Virus record (IMG/VR): IMGVR_UViG_3300021387_001709
Span: 96,001 to 160,000 of that record
DNA: 64,000 nucleotides
DNA from: a virus
Lineage: Duplodnaviria; Caudoviricetes
Direction: 5' to 3' (one strand)
Numbering within the stretch: position 1 is the stretch's first letter; every line of letters starts with the position of its first letter. A model generated the notes under the pieces. It had not been told where the DNA came from. It made no database searches and was given only the letters and a program-made list of their open reading frames with translations. A program made the translations under genes and the position numbers. Positions 4,265 to 22,910 of this stretch are shown here, piece after piece.

Positions 4265-5539
4265 TTAAAAATTAATAATAGGTTTTTCGATATCTGTATC
4301 TATAGTATTTAATTTCATAACGTCAATATAACTATATATGTCAAACGGTTTATCAATACCGTGTTTCTTTCTTATCTCATTTATATACTCCTGAAGTTGC
4401 TCTGGGGTATTGTTTTTTGCTCCATACTTATGATGAAACGAACCATATATAAACATATTATGATATTTTTTATCCAATATAATGGTGTTCCACTCTTCAA
4501 ACATATATTCTGGATATGTTGACATGGGATATATATGATGTAATTCCAGATTATCTGTAACTGTATTGGTAATATAACAAACGGATCCATATTTTTTAAT
4601 AATTGAATCTCTCCAATGTTTATACGGTTTACTACTTCTAATCCTTTGATTTAGTGTTTTTTCTCCGCCTTTCCAGTTGGGATTATTTTCTCCGGTATAA
4701 TGCCAGCCACCGCCACAGGTTTTGGCGTCACCTTTTCGTAAAACACTACCTCTGATACTTACATCGTTTCCACATGAACAATGACAAAACCAATACGGTA
4801 CTCCGTCAACGGATTTATCAAAAGCCGTTACGGTTAATTCCCCATATTGTTTTCCTACTAAGTCAATAAGACCAATCCCTAATCTGGCACACTCAGGACA
4901 TTCAAAATGTTTAATTTTAGACTGAGCAATTTCTCTTAAGTAATCATCATGTTTCCCATTATTGCATTTCCAATACACTTTTTTATTTGAATTACAATAA
5001 TAATCATATGGAGTCATTTCATTTTTATTTGACCAATAAAGAATGCTGTCTGGGTATATGACTCCTAAAGATTTTTCTTTTTTTACAGCGGCATCGTTCG
5101 GAATCCATTTACCTTTTGGCCTAAAAAATCTTTCTGGAACAATTGTTTTTACTCCACCATTATCCAAATCATTTATTTTAATATCAATCTTAGACCTAAA
5201 GCTAATATCCCATGGGGTGAAACCATTGTCTTCGTTCCAAATTTTTTCTAAATAATCAATGCCATATTTATCTATAACATGTTGGGCAAAACTAGAACAT
5301 GCTCTACATGCCAGTTCTTGATGTTCTCCATTTAACCTCCCAAGTGGATATATTTTATGTGATTCACTTTCATGAATACCCCTTGGACATTTTAACCAAA
5401 CATCTTTTTCAGAACCCATTGATAATTCGCCTGGACTAAAAGCATTCTTTTCATAATCCCACCTATTTAATAAATCGAATCTAGAATGATCGTTACACCA
5501 TTTATCAAAATAATATTTTTCTTTCTTTCCCATTTTCAT
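4265..5539 (-). CDS. free-standing HNH-type homing endonuclease with zinc-ribbon repeats
   Basis: Repeated WxCxxGxH...CxxC units, NPNWKGG, C-terminal LELHHIYP...N...H...FH; AT-rich insertion in tail module. Confidence 0.7.
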   Translation of the reverse strand: MKMGKKEKYYFDKWCNDHSRFDLLNRWDYEKNAFSPGELSMGSEKDVWLKCPRGIHESESHKIYPLGRLNGEHQELACRACSSFAQHVIDKYGIDYLEKIWNEDNGFTPWDISFRSKIDIKINDLDNGGVKTIVPERFFRPKGKWIPNDAAVKKEKSLGVIYPDSILYWSNKNEMTPYDYYCNSNKKVYWKCNNGKHDDYLREIAQSKIKHFECPECARLGIGLIDLVGKQYGELTVTAFDKSVDGVPYWFCHCSCGNDVSIRGSVLRKGDAKTCGGGWHYTGENNPNWKGGEKTLNQRIRSSKPYKHWRDSIIKKYGSVCYITNTVTDNLELHHIYPMSTYPEYMFEEWNTIILDKKYHNMFIYGSFHHKYGAKNNTPEQLQEYINEIRKKHGIDKPFDIYSYIDVMKLNTIDTDIEKPIINF

Positions 5540-5571
5540 TTCTCCTTATAATGAATCTCCTAAATTTAGAC

Positions 5572-5640
5572 AAAATAAAAGAGCGGGATAGGAGTTTCCC
5601 GCTCTTGTCAGTTGGGTTGCAAAACCAACCTATTTATTTT
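5572..5640 (-). promoter_or_regulatory. three-way-junction RNA element upstream of HNH gene
   Basis: Outer stem AAAATAAA/TTTATTTT, TTGCAA-loop hairpin, second hairpin with anti-SD loop CTCCTA; same architecture at 16858-16925. Confidence 0.55.
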
Positions 5641-5696
5641 TAAATAAAACCGCCGGATTTGACCCCGACGGCTCTTGATAGTTAAACGATAATAAA

Positions 5697-6509
5697 TTAT
5701 TCGTCTTCCTCGTCATCTTCAACAACATAGATGCTATAGAGTCTCTTATCAGCGTCGCAATAAGAAACCTGAAGCTGTCCATTAAAGTCGATAGTCTGAT
5801 TGTCGGAACTCAGTGACACTTCGCTTTCCGGCGATACCTAGAAGGACGGAATGTCGATATATGCTGCGCGGAGTGTGTCTGCGGAACAAGGATCGACACA
5901 AAGAACCTTAAGGATAAGACGGATAGTCCCCGGGAACTTATCAGCTTTATTAATCATCTCAACAGCACCAGCCGTTGCAGCGGTGCCATCAAGTTCACGG
6001 TCATAACGAATCAGATACTGAGTATAATCGTTGCTAAGCGGAAGAGTAAGTACACCGGTTCCATCATCATAAGTAAATGTGGAAGCAGTAGCACTACCGC
6101 CGGTCTGGAATGCAATACCGAGAGTACCGTTGTTTTCCATACCATACACCTTCGGCGTACCGGTTACATACTTAAGTGTAACGGTCGGGCCATCAGATGC
6201 CTTAGCAATTGTGATTCCCGGTGCGGTAATCTTATGGTTTGCACTAGCTTCAACCTTTCCAGAACCAGCTTCAGATCCGAGAATATTAAGGTTAATAAAA
6301 GCGTTAGTTGCTGTAAACTCACCGGTTTTTGCTCTCCAGAAACGTTTCACGAGGTTGCCGTCTTTATCGGTAACATCATTAGATTCTGCGGAAATATTAA
6401 GAGTAGCTTCCTAAAGCTGGGTGAGTGTATAGAGAACGTTGCCGTCAAAGTCTTCAGCAGTTGCGACCTAGATACGGTCAATAATAAGATCATCGAGCTT
6501 GAATGCCAT
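5697..6509 (-). CDS. major tail tube protein, 270 aa (3 in-frame TAG)
   Basis: RBS GAAAGGAG, MAFKLDDLIIDRI(TAG)VATAE...; TAG at 6468, 6411, 5838; TAA at 5697; position after neck genes. Confidence 0.8.
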
Positions 6510-6580
6510 AATACATTTCTCCTTTCATAATATATTTTATCATTTTATTGTATTAACCGATTATTTCGGGTTATACCAAA

Positions 6581-7375
6581 TTATTTATTGTCACTATTTA
6601 AATCTCTCATAAAATTAAATGATTCCTTCGGAACTTTAGACATATCAGCAAATCCGCTCATACTGCCGGCTAACAATGCCCGTGTATTTTCATAGATTTG
6701 CAAACGTTGCACAGAATCCATAAACACAACATAGTTAATATCCTTAAGCTGCTCAAGGTTGTACTTAAACCCTGGGTGATTAATGCATGCAGAAACTAAC
6801 GGCAACAACGCGGAAGTAGGAGCATCCCCATCTTTTTTTTGACGAGCCAAATTCTGCTCATCTTCCCAAATGATTGCCTCCTTTGTCGCTTTACCTTTGG
6901 CCTTTTCAACCTTTGGATGAATGTTGAAAGCAGTGCGATAATACTCTGAAATTGTAGTATAATCCTCTTCACTAATTTCTATATCATCCGCGGCATCATA
7001 AAGCGTTACTACCTATGAATCAACCAGATTGCCATCTTCATCCGCTTGCTAAACATTTTTGGCATATAAGTCGAATTTCTCCCAGTCTATGTCACCAAAC
7101 AATAATTTTGTAACCTCAGGAGTTTGACCCTTATATAGCATAAGGAACAGCTAGTAATCTGTTATTTTATTCCAATCAACCCCGGCTTTCCAGAGTTGGA
7201 GTCGGTATGTTGTAGGATTACTAACCCATATGTTTAATGAGCCGTAAAACGTAATGTCAGCATCCGGCAAATAGAGAATATCTCCAATTGTTGGGATATG
7301 CAGTGTCATGCCATTACCGACTTCATACGGTAGTCCAAAGTACATCTTTAGAGGATTGAATTTAAACTCGCCCAT
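6581..7375 (-). CDS. tail/neck-region virion protein, 264 aa (3 in-frame TAG)
   Basis: ORF fragments 7151-7384 and 6581-6850 share one frame broken only by TAG. Confidence 0.75.
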
Positions 7376-7376
7376 A

Positions 7377-7943
7377 TTAACCACCTATTTTATTTACCAC
7401 GCGCGAAACATTATCTTTGGTTTTAACAATATCTTTGCCCATAACCATTTCGAATGTTATAGTGCGAGTAGCATAGTCATTATCCGTGACAGACGGTAAA
7501 TCTGATAGCACATGACATTGTGTTCCAAATTTATTTGTCCAATTAAATAAATGTTTTATTCTGGCAGCAATTAAATCGTGGCGAGCAATACCGGTAAGTT
7601 TTTCAGTACCGTTCTTTTCTTCACAAAGTATATAGAAAATAATATCTACATACATAAGGCTGTCATTATATCTAGGCGTTTCTTTAAATTGCACCTCATA
7701 ACAAATAAAATTCTAAACATTGTGCTGAGTAGGATGAATCATATAGTACGGAAGTATATTAACATCTAAATAATCGCTTGGGTCTGCATTCTCATCCTCA
7801 AGTTCCTTGTTGTTTAATAAATAAATAATCAAAGGATCATCTATGAGAGTTTTTTTAATAATTTCTTTAAAACGTATATTGTTATCATCCATTGTAGATT
7901 TATAGGCACGAAGTTCCTGAAGTTGTTCAGTTGTTAATTCCAT
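7377..7943 (-). CDS. putative tail completion/terminator protein, 188 aa (1 in-frame TAG)
   Basis: Fragments 7713-7943 and 7377-7694 joined by TAG 7713: HNV(Q)NFICYEV. Confidence 0.75.
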
Positions 7944-7956
7944 AACTCATACCTCC

Positions 7957-9407
7957 TTACAACGCAATGATTTCAATTGGCAGCGAAGCGATTATATCTT
8001 CGCCATCAACTTTATAGGTTACAGTAAGTATTTTGCCGATATACGAATCGTCTCCCAAGAACTTAACCTTAACATGATTATCTGTTGCAGATAACGTCAG
8101 CAATTCTTGCGGAACGGAATTCCCATCTATAGAAAAATCCCAAGTACCTGGAAGTGCATCTACCGGCATACCGTCTTTGTCGGCAAATACCACAGTGAAT
8201 GTTTTAGCAGAGCCGCCTATACGAATCTGCTGTTTACCGGAGCATGTAATTGTAGCGGTGGTAGTGGGAGAAGGAGTAATATCATCTACAGGAATTGCCG
8301 GAGTCGGCTCTACTTCACTAGCTTTCCAATCCGCCCACCAAGCAATTACATTACCATCAACATCATAATCAGCCTTAAGTGTATGTTGATTAGCAAGATC
8401 TTGCGCACAAGTAAAAATCGCAATTCCTTTGGAATTACTGCGATTGACCTTACTAATCTAAAAAACTCTAGGCTCAGTTAGCACATTGGCATCTATCACT
8501 AAAAACGTATTGTAATATAGGTGTTCCGTGTCTCGATTTAATGGAAGACAAAACTGAGTCTAGTCTTCTACTTGCGTCACCTTGTAGTCAGTCCACAATC
8601 CGCTCATTATGTTATCATAAGGCTTTTTATCCTTATTTCTTACCGTCGCCGGTAAGATCAGCATATGTTTTCTCCATATCATTAATCGACTTAGGAGTCG
8701 GACACTCGTGGGAATATTATATTTATTCAATTCCTATGCGTTACAATACTTCGCGACCTTTCGCTATTCGCGAAGTTATCTCGGCGTTGTCTACAGGAGA
8801 GTTTCACCGATTTTGCCCGATTTTCACTTATAAGTTTCCTTATAAGGCAACAATTTTTATTGTACGAATTCTGGCTTCTGCTAACCCCCGGGAACTCATA
8901 ATATTTCCCATCTTTAATCCAGCGGAACACTTCATCGCAACGAAGCACCTCCCAAGTCGGAAACATATTTTCATCCCGGTCGGCTGTAGCAACCACTAAC
9001 CATCTGCGGTATATGTCATCTTCTCCCTTTAGCCAAACATAAAGACCAACTGGATATCTGGCTCTATACCGCTTACCAAACACTTCTTCGTAATAATCAA
9101 CCTCGCACTCATGACCAGGTCTAAACTGAATATGCATAGTTACCTCGTCTTTCTAAAATGTTTTTTTCGAGTGTGCAATAAATTTCACATCTATAGGTGT
9201 TGGATTTGTATCCTCTTCCGGATTAAATCCTTCAAGACGAAGTCTATTCTACGGCGCAGTATGGTAGTAATCGAAGAAATATCCTACCTAATACTAAACA
9301 TCCTATGTAAACGTAGCATCCATGATTACATCACTTTGCTACTTCCTCGCCCTCCCCGGTACACTAATATTATTGTGCATTGCCTGAAAATCTCTGTAGG
9401 TAATCAT
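7957..9407 (-). CDS. neck/head-closure-region virion protein, 398 aa; exons 8859-9407 and 7957-8604; 8 in-frame TAG
   Basis: Spliced junction RSQNSYN|SGLWTDY; RBS AAGGTGA before ATG 9407; TAA at 7957. Confidence 0.75.
8605..8858 (-). mobile_element. group I intron, ORF-less, 254 nt
   Basis: 5' exon ends U (CAAU pairs IGS GUUG), terminal G, P7 GCAUA/UAUGC, frame restored. Confidence 0.85.
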
Positions 9408-9408
9408 A

Positions 9409-9741
9409 TCAATCACCTTCCTTTATTTTCATAATCTCCGCACCGGCATCTAGGATAAGCTTCCGGTAATTTTTAAAATCAAAACTTTCACTTAGGTACT
9501 CGGATTTCGCCGACTCAAGAATGCTCATTGTAAGCACAAGTTCCGGCGGTTCGCGCAAAATACCATTTAAACCATTTAATTTATATTGTAAGCTATGGAA
9601 TGCCTCCACAACATCAATATTGGGATATTCTTCCTTAGTATTCGGATCCACATAAAGCAACAGGAAGAAAATTGCCTTACGCAAAGAAATTTTAGTAGAA
9701 TGAATCTGAGCAGAAGAGTAGTCGCCATACCGAGTTTTCAT
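9409..9741 (-). CDS. head-tail region protein
   Basis: ATGA overlap with upstream gene. Confidence 0.7.
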   Translation of the reverse strand: MKTRYGDYSSAQIHSTKISLRKAIFFLLLYVDPNTKEEYPNIDVVEAFHSLQYKLNGLNGILREPPELVLTMSILESAKSEYLSESFDFKNYRKLILDAGAEIMKIKEGD

Positions 9742-10202
9742 ACAGTATCAACCCCATTGATAACGGATAAACTATATCCATAATCTCGGATAAGTTTGCG
9801 AAGATCAGTTTGAGCTTTGGTGTACATAGCATGAAGCTCGTTCATTTGAGTTGACTATGCATAGAACTTCTATTCGCTGTTCGATATTAATTGTGATGTC
9901 AACAGCGTAGAATGGTATTTGGGATCTAGCCACCGTTCAACCATCCCCAAAGCCAATACTTCCTCCACAAAATCCTTATCGGAATCCTCGTCCAGAGAAT
10001 TCCGCAATTCGTATTCTATCTCTTCTATATCTTCATCCAGCGTTACCGACTAAAAAAGCCTACGCACCATTGGTTTGGATAGCGTAGACTTCAAGTAGCC
10101 GAGTAACATTTGCTTTACTAATTTTTCTTCTAATCCCGATGTCTCGTAATCTTTTACACGCAGGTAAAAGCGAGAATATATTTCATCAAATTCAGAGGTC
10201 AT
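9738..10202 (-). CDS. putative head-tail adaptor, 154 aa (3 in-frame TAG; absent from ORF track)
   Basis: RBS GGAGG, MTSEFDEIYSRFY...SE(TAG)KFYA(TAG)STQ; TGA overlaps next ATG. Confidence 0.78.
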
Positions 10203-10217
10203 GGGATACCTCCTTTA

Positions 10218-10895
10218 TTAGATAAACTCTTTAATTCCGGTGCCCAGAATATTATCAATAATGACGAGTTTCTGCAAAGACGGATAGTTTTCATTACGAA
10301 TCATATCCATTGCGGTATATTCAATAACAGATTTAAACGTATCCGAAGATTCGTTTAACATCTTTTCAAACTCCTCGTCTGATTTTTCGAAAAACTCTTC
10401 TGGGTAATCTACACCTAAATATTTCTGATAAACATTTCCAATATCATGTTTCCACTGGTCACAAATATCCGGGTCTTCAATCATAATCATAGCATCCATA
10501 ATTACCGGTTTTCTACGCCATGACTGAAGATCTCTATAAGCAACATATTCGATGTCTCCAAAATGAGGCCATTTATATGTCGTCATCTTATCAAGACCTA
10601 CGGTTTCAAGATACCATGGGACAATACTTCTACATGGGATCAAGTCATCAGGTGCAAATTTCTTTACAACTTTGGGAGGTACTGTTTTTCGCTGCTTTGT
10701 AGAAGCAGTAGTTTTCGCAACAGTAGCAGTAGGAGTCTTTGAAACAGGTTTCGCAAAATTATCCCTAGCGTCTTTAATCATAGCTTCGTCAACAGACTGC
10801 ATATGACTAGAAATTTTATAACCTTTGCTTTTTAAGAAATCAATTAACTCCTTATTCTTCACTCCCAGCTCTTTAGATAATTCATTTACAATCAT
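10218..10895 (-). CDS. post-capsid protein with IF2 N-terminal-like domain
   Basis: MIVNELSKELGVKNKELIDFLKSKGYKISSHMQSV resembles IF2_N. Confidence 0.7.
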   Translation of the reverse strand: MIVNELSKELGVKNKELIDFLKSKGYKISSHMQSVDEAMIKDARDNFAKPVSKTPTATVAKTTASTKQRKTVPPKVVKKFAPDDLIPCRSIVPWYLETVGLDKMTTYKWPHFGDIEYVAYRDLQSWRRKPVIMDAMIMIEDPDICDQWKHDIGNVYQKYLGVDYPEEFFEKSDEEFEKMLNESSDTFKSVIEYTAMDMIRNENYPSLQKLVIIDNILGTGIKEFI

Positions 10896-10927
10896 CTCAA
10901 TACTCCTTTTAATCCATTAAGAAAAAA

Positions 10928-13201
10928 TCAAGCGTTATCAATAATCACACCAAACAGCTCATCAATAACAACGCCGATTCCCTCGTAGTACCAGATCTCA
11001 GCTTCAATTGTACGATCCTGAAGAGAGCCGTCCATTCCACGTTCGAAGTATTCTACGTCGCCCTCATTAACTCTCTTAATCGGTTTGAAAGAGTCATCAA
11101 TCGGAACGATGAAAATCTTCTTATTATCATTAGCGGTAAAGATAGAGGTACGAGTGCCTTCCTCATTTACTCTGTCAAGAACAAGACAATCATAGCCTTC
11201 CCACATTCCAAGCATACCTTTTTCATGGAGTTCCTGTTTCATATCATTACTCCACATTTTGTAATTCACGGTATTCTGAAGTTTCTGCATTGCAACACGA
11301 GTACCTACAAGCATAACATCCTTACCGGTTGTAGCTTTAACTGCCTCAATTTTATCAATGATAGAATCTTTAGTAGCCTCAGTAATTGCAATACTAGCTT
11401 TCATATCAGCCGGAAGATAAGAGTCAAGGCTCATGAATGCAGTATAAAGCGCAGAATAACGATGTTTTTCGATGCTTCTATACATAAGGTCTACCATTTC
11501 GGAGAAATCAACCTTGCCAAGCATAAACATCTCAAAATCAGTATAAACTTTAATTACATACGGATAAGTATCAATCGAGAATCCTTTTCCCGGAAGGACT
11601 TTCTGACGTACACTTTTTTGTTTAACATATATTATTTTTCCAAATTTTTATCATCAAATATAAAATGCCAATGGTATCCTCCGCAGGTATGACGTTCACC
11701 ACGGCAAGCTTTTAGAATTCCTCCGCTTTCCAGTTGTAATTCCTTTGAAGCAGTAGAGGCATTTATATATTCCATATTTAACTCTTCACAGAATACTTTA
11801 GTATAATTTTTATTATAAGGTTCGTAATGTTTCTCTTTTTTCGCATCACTTATTTTCTTTTTTGTCTCCTCTGTATGATGCTTTCCATACATAACATTAT
11901 TCTCACCAAGTATTCTTTCTTTATTTAAAGGATTTTCCCAATAGCGTCTTGTAGTCTCACTCCTTCGTTGTCTCAAATCCCCATTTTCATATGAGCGTTT
12001 AACGGACTCACTCATTTTATTTTTTATTTCATCCGTATAATATGAGGAGCAATTCTACCCACCTGTTTTTTTATTATATCCATACTTTCTGTTTAATGCG
12101 TTATAATATTCAATATAATATATTTCTTTTTCATCAAGTTCATTTGCATCACATTCCTCTATAATATAAAAAATGAAATTATTTTCTCCATATTTATTCC
12201 AAGAATTCTGCAAATGACTATTCCCATGATAGTTTGACTTCAATGCATTTTTATGTTTTCTCCATCTGTCATATATATCATGTGCCTATCCGACATATTT
12301 TTTATGATTAACTATATTTTCTATACAATATATCCCAGATATTATATCTTTCTTCATTATTACCTACCTTTTTTATATTTGGAAAAATAATTTTATTGGG
12401 GTCGCTACTCCCAGTTCGGTTTAAAACCGCTCAAGCTTTCACTTGAGAACAGACTATATCTTTTTCGTTAAATAACGAACACACCATTTCCATTTAAGGG
12501 GTTTTCACCCACCCGCTTGGGCCGTACTCCTATTGTCACATTATATGACCATGGGATAGTCGTTGAACATTCTCTTATTTAGAGCTTTGCTGCTGATTGC
12601 CCATTACCAAAACAACAGGGGATTTAACCTCGTTGTCATACAATTAATTTTTTCTACTTTCGTAACCATCACATTTGTACTTATTCATTACTCTGTTGTG
12701 GTTTAATTGTCTTTGGGGTTTCCCAGCAATTAGATGTGTATTTTAACATACAGCTTACGCTATACGGACACTGTTTTAGCCAATGTCATGATGATTGCCA
12801 GCCCATTTGCTAACCTGAAGAAGAGCAGTATTATTAGCTGTGAAATAATTCATATCACCGCGAGCAATATTAACATCCTCTACATAGTTCATAAAACGAG
12901 CATTCGTAGAATCCCAGCCGGAAACCATCTTGTCAGCAAGGACATTTTCGATTACAGAACAGATCTCAATGCCATGTGCTCTCCAAGCCTGTCTACGCTC
13001 CATACGTTTGGCATTCTTAAAGTCAATACCAAGAATCTTATTAAACTAGTTACGAATAATCTCAGAAGTCTGAGCCTTAGAATATTTTTCATAAACACCA
13101 TTTGTGGCGTCCATCATAAGATCGTTGAACTGAAGCATATTCTCATAGTTATTATCAAATTTTGCAACAACATTATTGCTAAAGCATGTAATATCTTTCA
13201 T
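10928..13201 (-). CDS. major capsid protein, 367 aa; exons 12783-13201 and 10928-11612; 1 in-frame TAG (13046)
   Basis: RBS GAGGTG, ATG 13201; spliced junction GNHHDI|VRQKVLPG; size and position after scaffold and decoration genes. Confidence 0.82.
11613..12782 (-). mobile_element. group I intron, 1170 nt, carrying a GIY-YIG ORF
   Basis: P1 GACAU/GUGUC with U.G, P10 ACA/UGU, R UUCAACGACUA, S AAGAUAUAGUCU, terminal G 11613. Confidence 0.9.
11632..12357 (-). CDS. intron-encoded GIY-YIG homing endonuclease, 241 aa (2 in-frame TAG)
   Basis: SGIYCIEN...KKYVG(TAG)AHDIYDRW..H; NUMOD3-like GKHHTEETKKKIS; C-terminal TCGGYHW. Confidence 0.88.
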
Positions 13202-13226
13202 TTCTTTTCACCTCTCTTCCTTACCA

Positions 13227-13835
13227 TTAGTTATTATTATCCACGTTCTGAATCACATAAATACGAACAAGAGTATAATCATTGTTTGTATAAATGCTAT
13301 GAACACGACCAACAAAACCAAAGTTTGCCATTGTCGGAGCGGCTACCTGAGCAACATATTTTCCTGTTCCATCAAGAACAACATATGCGTCCTCTCTTAC
13401 ATTAGTCTGAGAAGCTTCGGTAAACATGTTGAGAGATACTCCAAAAATGTCTCCATCATATTTGTCGCCAACTACCTCATAAACCTTAGAGTCCTGTCCG
13501 GCTTTATTGTAGAAGAATCCCTCGGATGCTTCATACTGGCTTCTCGCATCTTTAATAAGTGCGGGAGAACCAACGATTCCGACTTTATCCTTAACACCGG
13601 CGATTGTCGCATAACGCTCCTGGAGACCTTTATCATTATGAGTGAAGTCCCCAACTTTCACCGCAACGGCATTATCTACGTTGATAGGTGTTCTTGTGAT
13701 GTTTGCACCGGTGCCGGTCTCGGTTACTACAAGGCAATCCCAGAGGTGTCCGGAAATTGTACTTTTGAGCAGGGAGGATTCGAAAATCCCATGAGTACCG
13801 CCGGCAAGTTCAGTTAAATTACTAAAAATAGCCAT
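13227..13835 (-). CDS. putative head decoration protein
   Basis: Between scaffold and capsid genes, RBS AAAGGAG, no TAG. Confidence 0.65.
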   Translation of the reverse strand: MAIFSNLTELAGGTHGIFESSLLKSTISGHLWDCLVVTETGTGANITRTPINVDNAVAVKVGDFTHNDKGLQERYATIAGVKDKVGIVGSPALIKDARSQYEASEGFFYNKAGQDSKVYEVVGDKYDGDIFGVSLNMFTEASQTNVREDAYVVLDGTGKYVAQVAAPTMANFGFVGRVHSIYTNNDYTLVRIYVIQNVDNNN

Positions 13836-13919
13836 AGTTTTTATTTCTCCTTTCTTTATAATAAATTTCAAAATGATAAGAGATTTTACTCTCCATTATT
13901 AACTAACTTTTTAATAGAA

Positions 13920-15629
13920 TCATTTCCTAGAATTAAGAAGCCCATCTAAAAACGAACTGTTATGTTCTACCCTTGCAAATGCAAAGAAATCTTTCTTCGG
14001 TTCTTCTTTCTTCTCGGAAGTATCTGCCGCAAAATTTAACTTACCGGCCTTTGCATACTGAAGCAGAATTGCGTCAGCTTTATCTTTGACTTCATCAACC
14101 GTAAGATTAAAATAATTCTCACGTTTCTTAAGATCTTCAAATTCCTGAGTACCGGCAATACTTGTATAATCTGCGGAATTAAGAACTTCAACCTTCTCCG
14201 GTTCAGATTCATATTTAGCAAGTTTATCAGAAATATCAGAATAATTACTCTTCATAGACTCAAGCTGAGCTTGCTCGTCCTTGCTTAAATACGTACAGAA
14301 CACCTCGGTGCGATCACCCTTTAAGGAATATACATCTTTCTTCACCTGATAAGATTGACGGTAATGTTTCCCATTCCAATAATCATGCATATACACGATT
14401 TTCTCATCTTCCAGTGCGTCCACGTCATACCAGGCATTATCGCTTTCTCCGTAAGTGGAATTCACAAGCTCATAAAGTGCGTTAAGTTTCTCCATCAGAG
14501 TAGAAGAGAACGTCTTTACTTCACCGTTAAAAGACACAGTTTTGTTAATACTATATTCCTTCTGCTGACCATTGTTTAGAACACCGTCATCAGTTACGGC
14601 GTCTTCCGGTTCTTCTTCCTCAGAATCGTCGGTGGTGTCTTCGTCATCAGAAGTGCCTTCGCCATCCGAATCATCTTCTCCATCAAATTCATCAACCACT
14701 TCGGGAGTTTCTTCGGTAACTTCTTCATCCACTTTTTCAGAAGATTCTGTCTCGGTAACCTGAGTTTCCTCATCAATGGTTTCATTCAATTCGATGTTTT
14801 CTTCCTCAATAGTCTCATCTGCTTTGTTTTCATCAAATTCCAAACCATGTTCCTCCTTTCTTTGGTCGTTATTTATATGATTATCAAGCTTATTCATAAC
14901 AGCTTGCGTAATCTCATCAATCAATTCTGCCTTATTAAACATAACAGAATTATTTTCGGCGCTAAAATCAGCAATATCTAATCTGGCGCCCTCCATGCCT
15001 TCACCAATTTCTTCTCCGGAAACGGGATCTACTCCGAGTAATGTGGCACCTAACACAACCACATCTTCAAGGACAAGTTCCTTCTCCTTTGAATCATAAG
15101 ACATTTTATTTACACCCAATTCAGCAGAAAGTTTCGTCCCGCCTTTGCGTTCAATTATATCGGCAGCAGCAGTGTAGTTTCTCGGAATTGCGCATTTCGC
15201 AAACAAATATTTTCTGTCTTCATGCTCAGAATCCTATTCGATATAAGGTTTATCTGCTGTAAAGCATCCCACTTGTTTTTCATAGTATGTAATAGAACCA
15301 TCATCATTAAACTCAAAATCGTGAGAAGTAAAATCCAGTTCTCCGTTTACATCTGTAAAATTTGCAAGAATCGGTTTATACGCAACAGTAGAAGCGCTAT
15401 TCTTCAAACCTTCTTCTGTTAAATTTGACCGGTTTTTGTTGCGTCCGCAATGCATCAGCTTAACCGTACCAATTAACAAAGAATCATCTTCTGAATCTTC
15501 CTTATCAAATACCGCCGGCACTTGTACACTTAGCTGATATCCAGTCTCTTTCGAATCAAAAGAATTAAAATTCTGCTATTCACAAAATTCAATTAAATTC
15601 TCTAATGTCAGAATTTTCTTCTTCAACAT
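13920..15629 (-). CDS. prohead protease/scaffold protein, 569 aa (2 in-frame TAG)
   Basis: RBS GGGAGG, ATG 15629; HCGRNKNRS, acidic linker, coiled-coil C-terminus; internal RBS plus TTG at 14843. Confidence 0.78.
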
Positions 15630-15676
15630 ACTTCCTCCCTTCTTTTTAGAATTTCTCTCCAAAGAATAGGAGAGTA

Positions 15677-15859
15677 TCAAAATGTTATTTTATTCGTAAA
15701 ATTTAACTTCATACCGTCATCAGCGGAAAACGTCAAATTAGTATTATTAATAAATACCCATTGACTCCCTTCTTTCGGAAGTTCTTCGTAACCGAGTTGG
15801 CGCAATTTCTCGGCGGTTTCCTCATCAGATGTATGAATAAAAAATTGTTTATTTCCCAT
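15677..15859 (-). CDS. hypothetical protein
   Basis: RBS AGGTGA before ATG 15859. Confidence 0.6.
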   Translation of the reverse strand: MGNKQFFIHTSDEETAEKLRQLGYEELPKEGSQWVFINNTNLTFSADDGMKLNFTNKITF

Positions 15860-15863
15860 AATA

Positions 15864-16088
15864 TCACCTACAAACATCATTAATTATGTCAGCGGTTTTT
15901 GTAAGTTCTTCGCGAGCCTTTTCACTAAACCCTGTGTCAGCAACTAATGCCTATGCAAGATACAGACAAAAATTTAGAAGAAATTCATCCTCAACATCAG
16001 TAGTAGATTCATCACTATTAAATACCTTATCTGATATTTGGTTATATTTTTCTATACACTCAGTTGTGTTTGGGTAAAAATTTTTCAT
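15864..16088 (-). CDS. hypothetical protein, 74 aa (1 in-frame TAG)
   Basis: RBS AAGGA, ATG 16088, TGA 15864. Confidence 0.55.
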
Positions 16089-16095
16089 TTTCCTT

Positions 16096-16818
16096 TTATC
16101 TCCTTTTATAATTTATATTTTCAAGTAATAGTTTATATTTATCCGGAAGTTCATTTAGACGATACCAAAAATATCCGTAAGCCTTGTGTGTTTTACTAGT
16201 AATAGTATAGGCTAATTTTAACGTTTTCTATTTAAATTCTGGATTTAAAGAAATAATTATACTCGGTGAATCATATACACCTATTATTTCAGTACAAGCA
16301 TCATTCATCTATATGATGCCACCGTATTTTTGCTTGAACTTAAGCGTACATATCTCACTGCTTGATAACCATTTAATATTATGTTTTAGTAATATTTTTT
16401 TAATCGTTTCGGGTGATACCTAAAAATATTTCGCCGTAAGACCAGCTATATAATTATTCTATATATGGATATTAATAACTTTCTCTTCGTCCAAATTTAA
16501 ATAACTTTTGCCATCTCCGCCGAGAGTCCCATTATATCCCTTACAATCTTTGTATCCTACATATGCACGATATTTTTCAATGTAATATTTTTCTCTATCA
16601 CATAAATACTAACCATTTTCAGCTTCTTCAATTACATCAAAATGAAAATGCTCTACGCCATAACAATTCATCGCGTCATATAAAGGGCGCTTTTCAAATC
16701 TCCGGCGCTTATAATCACTCTAGTGTTCTTTCCATCTATCATAAGGATTATTATCCTCTGTTTTCCCAATATAAACTTTATCATTAATGTCGCAAGTTAT
16801 TTTATAAATCCAACCCAT
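16096..16818 (-). CDS. free-standing GIY-YIG endonuclease, 240 aa (5 in-frame TAG; absent from ORF track)
   Basis: MGWIYKIT...KVYIGKT...RWKEH, REKYYI, GYNGTLGGDG, C-terminal KAYGYFW; RBS AGGAGG. Confidence 0.85.
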
Positions 16819-16857
16819 AATTTTACCTCCTAGTGTAATATAACCTAGCTATCATAA

Positions 16858-16925
16858 ACACAGAATAGGAGAGAGCTAGGACATCTCTCCATATAAGGTT
16901 TGCAACTCCTTATATTATTCTGTGT
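16858..16925 (-). promoter_or_regulatory. three-way-junction RNA element upstream of GIY-YIG gene
   Basis: Outer stem ACACAGAATA/TATTCTGTGT, TTGCAA-loop hairpin, hairpin with anti-SD loop TCCTAGC. Confidence 0.6.
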
Positions 16926-16928
16926 GAG

Positions 16929-17000
16929 CAAGGGCGCCAGGTGCCGTCCCCGGTCCTCGCGGGTTAGAGCCGCGCGCACTAGCTGGTATGCTACGCCCCT
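16929..17000 (-). tRNA. amber suppressor tRNA (anticodon CUA), presumed Gln
   Basis: Acceptor AGGGGCG/CGCCCTT+G73, D stem GCAT/GTGC, anticodon arm CGCGG-CTCTAAC-CCGCG, T arm CCGGG-GACGGCA-CCTGG; CCA not encoded. Confidence 0.88.
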
Positions 17001-17047: not shown

Positions 17048-17072
17048 AGAGCGGGAGCTTAATCCCGCTCTT
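17048..17072 (-). terminator. terminator-like hairpin
   Basis: AGAGCGGGA/TCCCGCTCT stem followed by T-rich tail. Confidence 0.45.
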
Positions 17073-17081
17073 AATTACCAA

Positions 17082-17489
17082 TTATAAATATTTGTCATAA
17101 AATTCATCATTAACTAAATCAACAACTTTATCAAGAATATCAAGGTTTTTAATAGCATCATTTAATTCTTTATAAAGATATCTATTCGGAACAGGATTAT
17201 GTGCTACATCTCCATAAACACGAAAATCATGTTCTGCACAATCTACAAAAGATTTACACTCAGTTTCATCTATATTATAAAATACTACGCCAACTGTCTC
17301 TTCATATTTCCCAGTAGAATCATTATATTTGCAAATCAAATAATTATCATCCGGATAATCTGTAGACTTAAACCATGATATTATTTCATCACCCGGTTCA
17401 TTATCGCAACTATAAATAACATCATAATCAACGCGATAAACCGCACCACATATACTCAATATATTATTTAGTTTTAGAATTTTATACAT
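17082..17489 (-). CDS. hypothetical protein
   Basis: RBS AAGGAG, no TAG. Confidence 0.65.
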   Translation of the reverse strand: MYKILKLNNILSICGAVYRVDYDVIYSCDNEPGDEIISWFKSTDYPDDNYLICKYNDSTGKYEETVGVVFYNIDETECKSFVDCAEHDFRVYGDVAHNPVPNRYLYKELNDAIKNLDILDKVVDLVNDEFYDKYL

Positions 17490-22836: not shown

Positions 22837-22910
22837 TAGCGAGGGCCGGCTCTGCCCCGACGATCTCCAGAACATGACTCTGGCGAGATGACTGACTTCT
22901 CTACCTCGCA
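22837..22910 (-). tRNA. tRNA with CAU anticodon, initiator-like acceptor, atypical loops
   Basis: U1xU72 mismatch, GCGAGG/CCTCGC, A11-U24, CCAGA-GTCATGT-TCTGG, T loop GGCAGAG. Confidence 0.75.

Follow-up and report, generated by a model that had tools for sequence, protein, structure and literature searches.

Two structured RNA elements in a stretch of phage DNA, each lying directly ahead of an endonuclease gene, are on balance members of one family of 5′-terminal leader RNAs of phage homing-endonuclease genes, which likely limit translation of the nuclease. The stretch, called the window here, comprises 64,000 nucleotides (nt) of the Caudoviricetes record IMGVR_UViG_3300021387_001709 (positions 96,001 to 160,000), a phage contig of 189.8 kb with 38% G+C. 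Copy 1 precedes a gene of the HNH type and copy 2 one of the GIY-YIG type. The original prediction, made from the sequence alone, had proposed in both places an outer stem enclosing two hairpins, followed by two sites complementary to the loop of the second hairpin; both elements were recovered where it had placed them, on the minus strand, with the sites as it described. The start of copy 2 right after an amber suppressor transfer RNA (tRNA) was absent from that prediction.

Few selfish elements of phages are as common as homing-endonuclease genes, and to our knowledge little has been established about what renders them harmless outside T4. A leader that is portable and conserved and has three parts that co-vary (the stems, a palindromic loop, and the pairing of the other loop with two sites) would be a general control module, and an element so small and modular lends itself to simple reporter tests. 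The tRNA-fused form would tie the transcription and processing of a suppressor tRNA to the expression of TAG-laden mobile genes in code-15 phages.

Structure of the two leader RNAs

Copy 2 (16858..16925, minus strand) is a gap-free three-way junction, as seen from its minimum-energy fold, its model scores and covariation. The outer stem (P1) pairs ACACAGAATA (16925-16916) with TATTCTGTGT (16867-16858) over 10 bp and encloses hairpin 1 (H1; 16915-16891, 8 bp), which reads ATATAAGG / loop AGTTGCAAA / CCTTATAT, and hairpin 2 (H2; 16890-16868, 7 bp), which reads GGAGAGA / loop TGTCCTAGC / TCTCTCC; the loops are AGUUGCAAA and UGUCCUAGC as RNA, and no base is left unpaired at the junction. Energy minimisation returns exactly this junction (-28.1 kcal/mol, z -4.95), a result equalled by none of 200 shuffles. 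Its scores of 105 bits with covariance model R1 and 93.8 bits with model R2 are high by construction, because copy 2 is in the seed of both models. The proximal site downstream, GCTAGG (GCUAGG as RNA; 16849-16844, minus strand), is complementary to nt 4-9 of the H2 loop and consists of the first bases of the GIY-YIG insertion; it is missing from the gene-less relatives. The distal site, CTAGGAGG (CUAGGAGG as RNA; 16833-16826, minus strand), is the Shine-Dalgarno (SD) sequence of the GIY-YIG gene, whose ATG lies at 16818, and its CUAGGA is complementary to nt 3-8 of the same loop. Two such sites, with duplexes of 6+6 nt, arise in 0.02% of shuffled leaders. The U-tract after P1 is poor in this copy (UUUAUGAU). 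Both sites are also covered by an open reading frame (ORF) of 10 codons (AUG AUA GCU AGG ... UAA; 16819-16853, minus strand) that ends within the SD; this ORF lacks an SD itself, its conservation does not extend to the relative L015, and a conserved leader peptide was rejected.

Copy 1 (5572..5640, minus strand) is recognised by its fold, its match to model R2 and a structural twin elsewhere. Its P1 joins AAAATAAA (5640-5633) to TTTATTTT (5579-5572), or AAAAUAAA and UUUAUUUU as RNA, and is weaker, being made of A and U only. H1 (5629-5611) reads GTTGG / TTTTGCAAC / CCAAC with the RNA loop UUUUGCAAC, and H2 (5605-5580) reads AGAGCGGGA / AACTCCTA / TCCCGCTCT with the RNA loop AACUCCUA. The minimum-energy fold holds both hairpins (z -4.65), the same two as in copy 2, and excludes the outer stem. 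The proximal site TAGGAG (UAGGAG; 5562-5557, minus strand) is complementary to the H2 loop, and the distal site AAGGAG (5547-5542, minus strand) is the SD of the HNH gene, with its ATG at 5539; two loop-complementary sites, here with duplexes of 6+5 nt, arise in 0.76% of shuffled leaders. H2 together with its T-run scores as an intrinsic terminator, and the 190-kb genome has just one other occurrence of the H2 stem AGAGCGGGA/TCCCGCTCT, in the terminator ahead of the suppressor tRNA. Model R2, built without copy 1, aligns it over its full length with 15.5 bits (E 0.0013) in a targeted search of 801 nt; in searches of 120-180 kb copy 1 reaches only E 0.25-0.36. The unrelated contig L038 carries a near structural twin of copy 1, with the junction UGACAAGAGCGGG and an almost identical H2 stem.

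The wider family and its covariation

Model R2 was built from seven tRNA-linked junctions and applied to 62 IMG/VR loci retrieved with an alignment of four HNH proteins; a single-protein search with the HNH protein had retrieved only one relative. On these loci it gave 30 matches at E<1, all on the sense strand and all upstream of an HNH/DUF4379 ORF, which bears out the endonuclease link that the covariance-model search proposed by the original prediction was meant to probe, for loci fetched through HNH/DUF4379. The start codon lies about 30-45 nt downstream of the match (83 nt in contig L040) in those distinct matches, 15 of 16, that had an assignable start. The downstream ORFs, examined in 10 representatives, are DUF4379 proteins, mostly in standard code. 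Members outside the seeds also score well: L015, L023 and L026, outside the R1 seed, reach 52-56 bits with R1, and L033 and L030, outside both seeds, reach 57.8-59 bits with R2. The ORF types headed by such a leader comprise HNH, GIY-YIG, an EndoVII-like type and an ORF of 174-185 amino acids (aa) without a family match. An exact-pattern scan of IMG/VR for the H1 core returned only known relatives and one chance match within a coding region, and megablast against GenBank phages returned only a 48-nt piece.

The covariance model yields 28 matches with 25 distinct loop combinations, from related and unrelated phage contigs. Across the 28 matches 90% of the pair cells are paired, as compared with 45-56% when the partners are slid, and none of 500 shuffles was as good; compensatory double changes are found in all 25 pairs. 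Covariation was also computed on a set of 10 sequences. Every instance except copy 1 folds alone as the junction. In the larger set H1 has 16 G-U cells and zero A-C cells, which points to a structure in the RNA of the gene strand; the first 9 sequences had given 8 against 6, and the larger set is decisive for H1 only.

On the unrelated phage contig L083, two group I introns (137-494 and 612-941) lie just upstream of the cassette of promoter, leader and DUF4379 gene, scoring 48.1 bits (just below the 50-bit cut-off) and 67.8 bits with Rfam.

Loops, complementary sites and 5′ ends

In 21 of 25 distinct rows, two sites of at least 5 nt that lie no more than 60 nt downstream are complements of the H2 loop, with differing sequences. 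The loop CCUAGC is matched by GCUAGG and CUAGGA, CUCCUAUC by GAUAGGAG and AUAGGAG, UUUCACUC by GAGUGAAA twice, UCACCUAC by GUAGGUGA and GUAGG, and CUCGUUCA/CCUCGU by UGAACGAG and ACGAGG. The probability of both sites per leader is at most 0.016 in shuffles and mostly below 0.2%. When loops and sites are swapped among leaders, two leaders that are not of the TAGGAG type pair best with their own sites, and related leaders of the TAGGAG type cross-match. The proximal site tends toward the 3′ part of the loop and the distal site, on the SD or the start region, toward the 5′ part; both use overlapping loop positions, and the two pairings are thus mutually exclusive.

A 6-nt palindrome is present in the H1 loop of 19 of the 25 members, against 3.8 expected from shuffling, and in none of the 25 H2 loops. 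Seven such palindromes occur (UUGCAA, UAAUUA, UCAUGA, UGAUCA, UUAUAA, AUUAAU and AUAUAU), of which both window copies have UUGCAA; in one relative it is broken (UUACAA). The 8 nt that follow P1 contain 56% U against a background of 31%, and 20 of 24 members have at least 5 U in them.

At the 5′ side, a sigma-70 promoter match of at least 10/12 is found in 7 of 16 distinct instances, a level reached by 1.9% of control positions, and four of these seven have a perfect TTGACA-17-TATAAT. The distance from the end of the -10 element to the match is 5-7 nt in six of the seven and 17 nt in the seventh. A tRNA end lies within 6 nt of P1 in 11 cases on 9 contigs: seven behind tRNA(CUA), two behind tRNA(CAU), and two, in other clades, behind tRNA-Thr/CUA. 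Within the recoded clade a tRNA 3′ end stands where other members have the promoter, and in both settings the junction is placed as the first structure of the messenger RNA (mRNA), about 70 nt in size.

Gain, loss and replacement among relatives

Relatives of the suppressor locus were collected by portal-based searches of IMG/VR and metagenomes. In seven genomes the same junction, though built of different stems, begins no more than 6 nt after a tRNA(cta). The tRNA itself is short and odd-elbowed, long-armed, or interrupted in its anticodon loop by an insertion of some 200-230 nt; by ARAGORN with option -i this insertion measures 197-231 nt in three relatives (L014 9108-9425, L023 6988-7275 and L026 1247-1531), and the Rfam group I intron model found none in these insertions at E≤1. 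The gene behind the junction varies: it is GIY-YIG in the window and an HNH homologue in L015, L016 and L023, whose ORFs share 31% identity with the window HNH (E 2e-33). Two close relatives retain the copy 2 junction without the GIY-YIG gene and without both sites, which indicates that the GIY-YIG gene landed behind a resident leader. The SD region of the GIY-YIG gene (UUAC..CUAGGAGGUAAA) shares homology with HNH leaders found in relatives, and the GIY-YIG ORF appears to have replaced an HNH ORF there.

Copy 1 and its HNH block (5636-4268, comprising H1, H2, leader and ORF) are identical in the related genome G002 and replaced by 112 nt in G001. With its HNH gene, copy 1 forms a cassette that has no tRNA. 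Both G001 and G002 also have a tRNA(CAU) followed by a junction with sites and the 174-185 aa ORF, and the window precisely lacks this block (22839 joins 22828). Hence at two loci, that of the copy 1 HNH gene and that of tRNA(CAU), the leader is gained or lost with its gene, while at the suppressor locus the leader stays. The idea that the leader travels with endonucleases accordingly fits copy 1, which comes and goes with HNH, but not copy 2, which is kept without GIY-YIG in the two relatives. A further junction in L026 follows a tRNA-Thr and precedes an EndoVII/HNH-like ORF. Three GIY-YIG relatives at other loci have no such leader and so gave no enrichment for the GIY-YIG family; the endonuclease link is therefore shown for HNH/DUF4379 plus single cases of other ORF types.

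The 174-185 aa ORF (L014 1962-2519, L030 1605-2127) has no PHROG match and, alone among the genes behind a leader here, cannot be recognised as a nuclease.

Comparison with known systems

No Rfam family reaches its gathering score for any member. The only full-length match is int-alpA (RF02996), which stays below threshold with 25.7 bits for copy 1 (model positions 1-71) and 31.0 bits for L038 against a gathering cut-off of 35.8; copy 2 and other members have no match to it at E≤1-10, and a search of the whole own genome with RF02996 gave no match. int-alpA is an orphan candidate RNA that Rfam files as a small RNA (sRNA) gene. It has the same plan as the leader family: a three-way junction with an outer stem and a variable hairpin 1, a hairpin 2 (GCGGG-AAACCUUUA-CCCGC) with an anti-SD-like loop containing CCU, and then a U-run and AGG. 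It differs in setting, since the leaders occur in a phage virion module, at endonuclease genes and at tRNA ends, and not in an integrase-alpA spacer. As the orphan Rfam motif most resembled, int-alpA gains a testable function.

In T-even phages, structures that sequester the ribosome-binding site control I-TevI, I-TevII, I-TevIII, segB and mobE (PMC2988022). These hairpins resemble the leaders as structured RNA before a free-standing or intron-borne endonuclease gene with a masked SD, and segB lies among tRNA genes. However, the SD of the T-even hairpins is one strand of a local hairpin, and an internal late promoter yields unmasked transcripts. In the leader family the SD lies outside any strong local stem in the minimum-energy folds and its predicted partner is the remote loop of a conserved junction, with a second competing site and a palindromic other loop. 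The element had been thought possibly undescribed; the two sub-threshold int-alpA matches and the known masking in T-even phages (PMC2988022) narrow that novelty.

Theta ribozymes, which are minimal ribozymes like that of hepatitis delta virus (HDV), lie within 5 nt of the ends of phage tRNA-Met, tRNA-Sup and tRNA-Leu, those at tRNA-Sup and tRNA-Met being from recoded gut or rumen phages (PMC10879173). The leader family shares with them the position of a structured RNA at a phage tRNA 3′ end and would be a second kind of such RNA. Their fold is a double pseudoknot, in contrast to the nested three-way junction with covariation here, which has no conserved catalytic C. An HDV-like or theta ribozyme was rejected on the nested fold, the lack of an Rfam HDV-type match and the lack of conserved junction bases. 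A D-armless tRNA or RNase P mimic was rejected as well, being called by ARAGORN in mitochondrial mode only, with loops and stem lengths that vary freely.

Proposed function and alternative explanations

The best-supported function that we infer is that of a cis-acting 5′ leader which would limit nuclease translation by loop-SD pairing, with the proximal site competing. In standard-code phages the leader starts a few nt after a near-consensus sigma-70 promoter, and in the TAG-recoded clade processing of the tRNA 3′ end would generate the 5′ end of the mRNA. The anti-SD-like H2 loop can pair with either of the two downstream sites; pairing with the SD would mask the ribosome-binding site and keep nuclease synthesis low, and the proximal site would compete for the loop and set the degree of masking. 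The U-rich tail after P1 may lead to a partial stop of transcription there. Dimerisation and attenuation may be added or alternative layers, as the palindromic loop and the U-tract suggest, and since the junction persists behind the suppressor tRNA in genomes that have no endonuclease there, it could also play a part in forming the tRNA 3′ end. From the earlier proposal of a translational switch or mobility signal, the covarying RNA and a loop that co-varies with two sites including the SD have held up; the role as a switch or in mobility stays putative.

Several points weigh against this function. The loop-site duplexes span only 5-9 bp (about -5 to -12 kcal/mol), RNAfold pairs up part of the H2 loop in copy 2, loop-site pseudoknots are beyond the reach of the folding tools used, and the covariation alignments were fitted to the model. 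Simple SD masking does not account for the palindromic H1 loop or for the need for a second site. Moreover, L003/G002, L014/G001 and L026 keep the tRNA-linked junction without an endonuclease and without complementary sites, from which it follows that the junction may have a separate use of its own in these three genomes, or that these are remnants.

A possible but rather unlikely alternative is that the element is a transcription attenuator releasing a putative short trans-acting RNA: transcription would mostly end in the U-rich tail that follows P1, and the short RNA would kiss the read-through leader via the H1 loop, the two H2 loops filling both sites. Such an arrangement would explain the duplication of the site, as two loops for two sites, and agrees with the excess of H1 palindromes in seven different sequences, the U-rich 8 nt after P1, the terminator score of copy 1 H2, the perfect consensus promoters ahead of a gene for a harmful enzyme, and the filing of the nearest family as an sRNA gene. 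It is opposed by the poor U-tract of copy 2, the need of the tRNA-fused copies for read-through into downstream late genes, and the broken palindrome UUACAA. An extended form of the idea, which we hold to be unlikely, makes the leader a self-dosing device in which abundant short RNAs kiss the few read-through mRNAs and shut the SD. A strong promoter or the tRNA transcript would be the source, and most copies would end at the U-tract after the junction; by the tRNA fusion of recoded phages the mRNA would be born by tRNA 3′ processing and the TAG-full gene made only after the code switch, and int-alpA, as it occurs in satellites and prophages, would be this very device.

It is quite improbable that the junction behind tRNAs serves the tRNA, as a 3′ trailer by which host RNases would be guided or blocked or the tRNA transcript terminated, with endonucleases merely inserting there. 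The closeness of the junction to the tRNA end in the 11 cases (anticodons CUA, CAU and UGU), the three genomes with a junction and no endonuclease, the theta ribozymes in the same niche (PMC10879173) and the ARAGORN calls of a D-armless tRNA speak for it. However, most family members have no nearby tRNA and start at promoters; copy 1 likewise lacks a tRNA; the tRNA(CAU) locus gains or loses the junction together with the ORF; two of the gene-less genomes have loop changes that break the anti-SD or the palindrome, as expected for decay; and conserved junction bases and an Rfam ribozyme match are lacking. That the repeats act on the DNA level is highly improbable. Here the endonuclease or a repressor would bind the inverted repeat of H1 and the short motif in its three copies (an inverted one within H2 and two direct ones), in the manner of I-TevI, which represses its own promoter via an operator (PMC2988022), and H1, read as DNA, is indeed an almost perfect palindrome that lies a short way downstream of the promoter. 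Yet the stem sequences co-vary freely while pairing is kept, H1 has G-U cells but no A-C cell, the inverted copy is always within a hairpin loop, and unrelated ORF types share the design. The cis-acting translational leader remains the preferred reading.

Genes and tRNAs around the two copies

In the window from 1 to 22500 all genes are on the minus strand. The two copies lie within the portal/virion module, where each has an endonuclease gene after it and, ahead of it, a tRNA (copy 2) or a virion gene (copy 1). The virion block is TAG-recoded, with ORFs of 2797 and 3522 codons that have 70 and 67 in-frame TAG, and the read-through region spans 44-118 kb of the genome on the minus strand (in the window up to about 22500). 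Both downstream genes are endonucleases, as had been predicted. The GIY-YIG homing-endonuclease gene (16096..16818, minus strand) is open only on read-through of its six in-frame TAG codons and matches PF01541 once TAG is read as Gln; the inserted block, about 16106-16849, starts exactly at the proximal site. The HNH gene (4265..5539, minus strand) has DUF4379 zinc fingers and matches PHROG HNH families; it contains zero TAG inside the recoded block, and consequently could be translated before the code switch. A hairpin with a T-run (5647..5674, minus strand), retained in the relative without the HNH block, ends the upstream virion gene; a tRNA remnant was considered at this place and dropped.

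The amber suppressor tRNA with anticodon CUA (16928..17000, minus strand) has non-canonical D and T loops and lies in a G+C-rich stretch (17000-16928), ending 2 nt before P1 of copy 2. It is called by ARAGORN only with relaxed thresholds and is missed by default ARAGORN and by the Rfam tRNA model; relatives have a tRNA(cta) at the same place. Upstream of it is the intrinsic terminator AGAGCGGGA..TCCCGCTCT (17048..17071, minus strand), with the same stem as copy 1 H2. A second odd-elbow tRNA, with anticodon CAU (22838-22908, minus strand), is likewise missed by default ARAGORN and Rfam; its T loop is GGCAGAG and that of the suppressor is GACGGCA, and its counterpart in G002 is a canonical tRNA(CAU) (L030 1430-1501, 52.7 bits). 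Between the portal gene and the terminator, an ORF of 135 aa (17082-17489, minus strand) matches no family; G001 has it and G002 lacks it, and it represents another small indel beside the tRNA.

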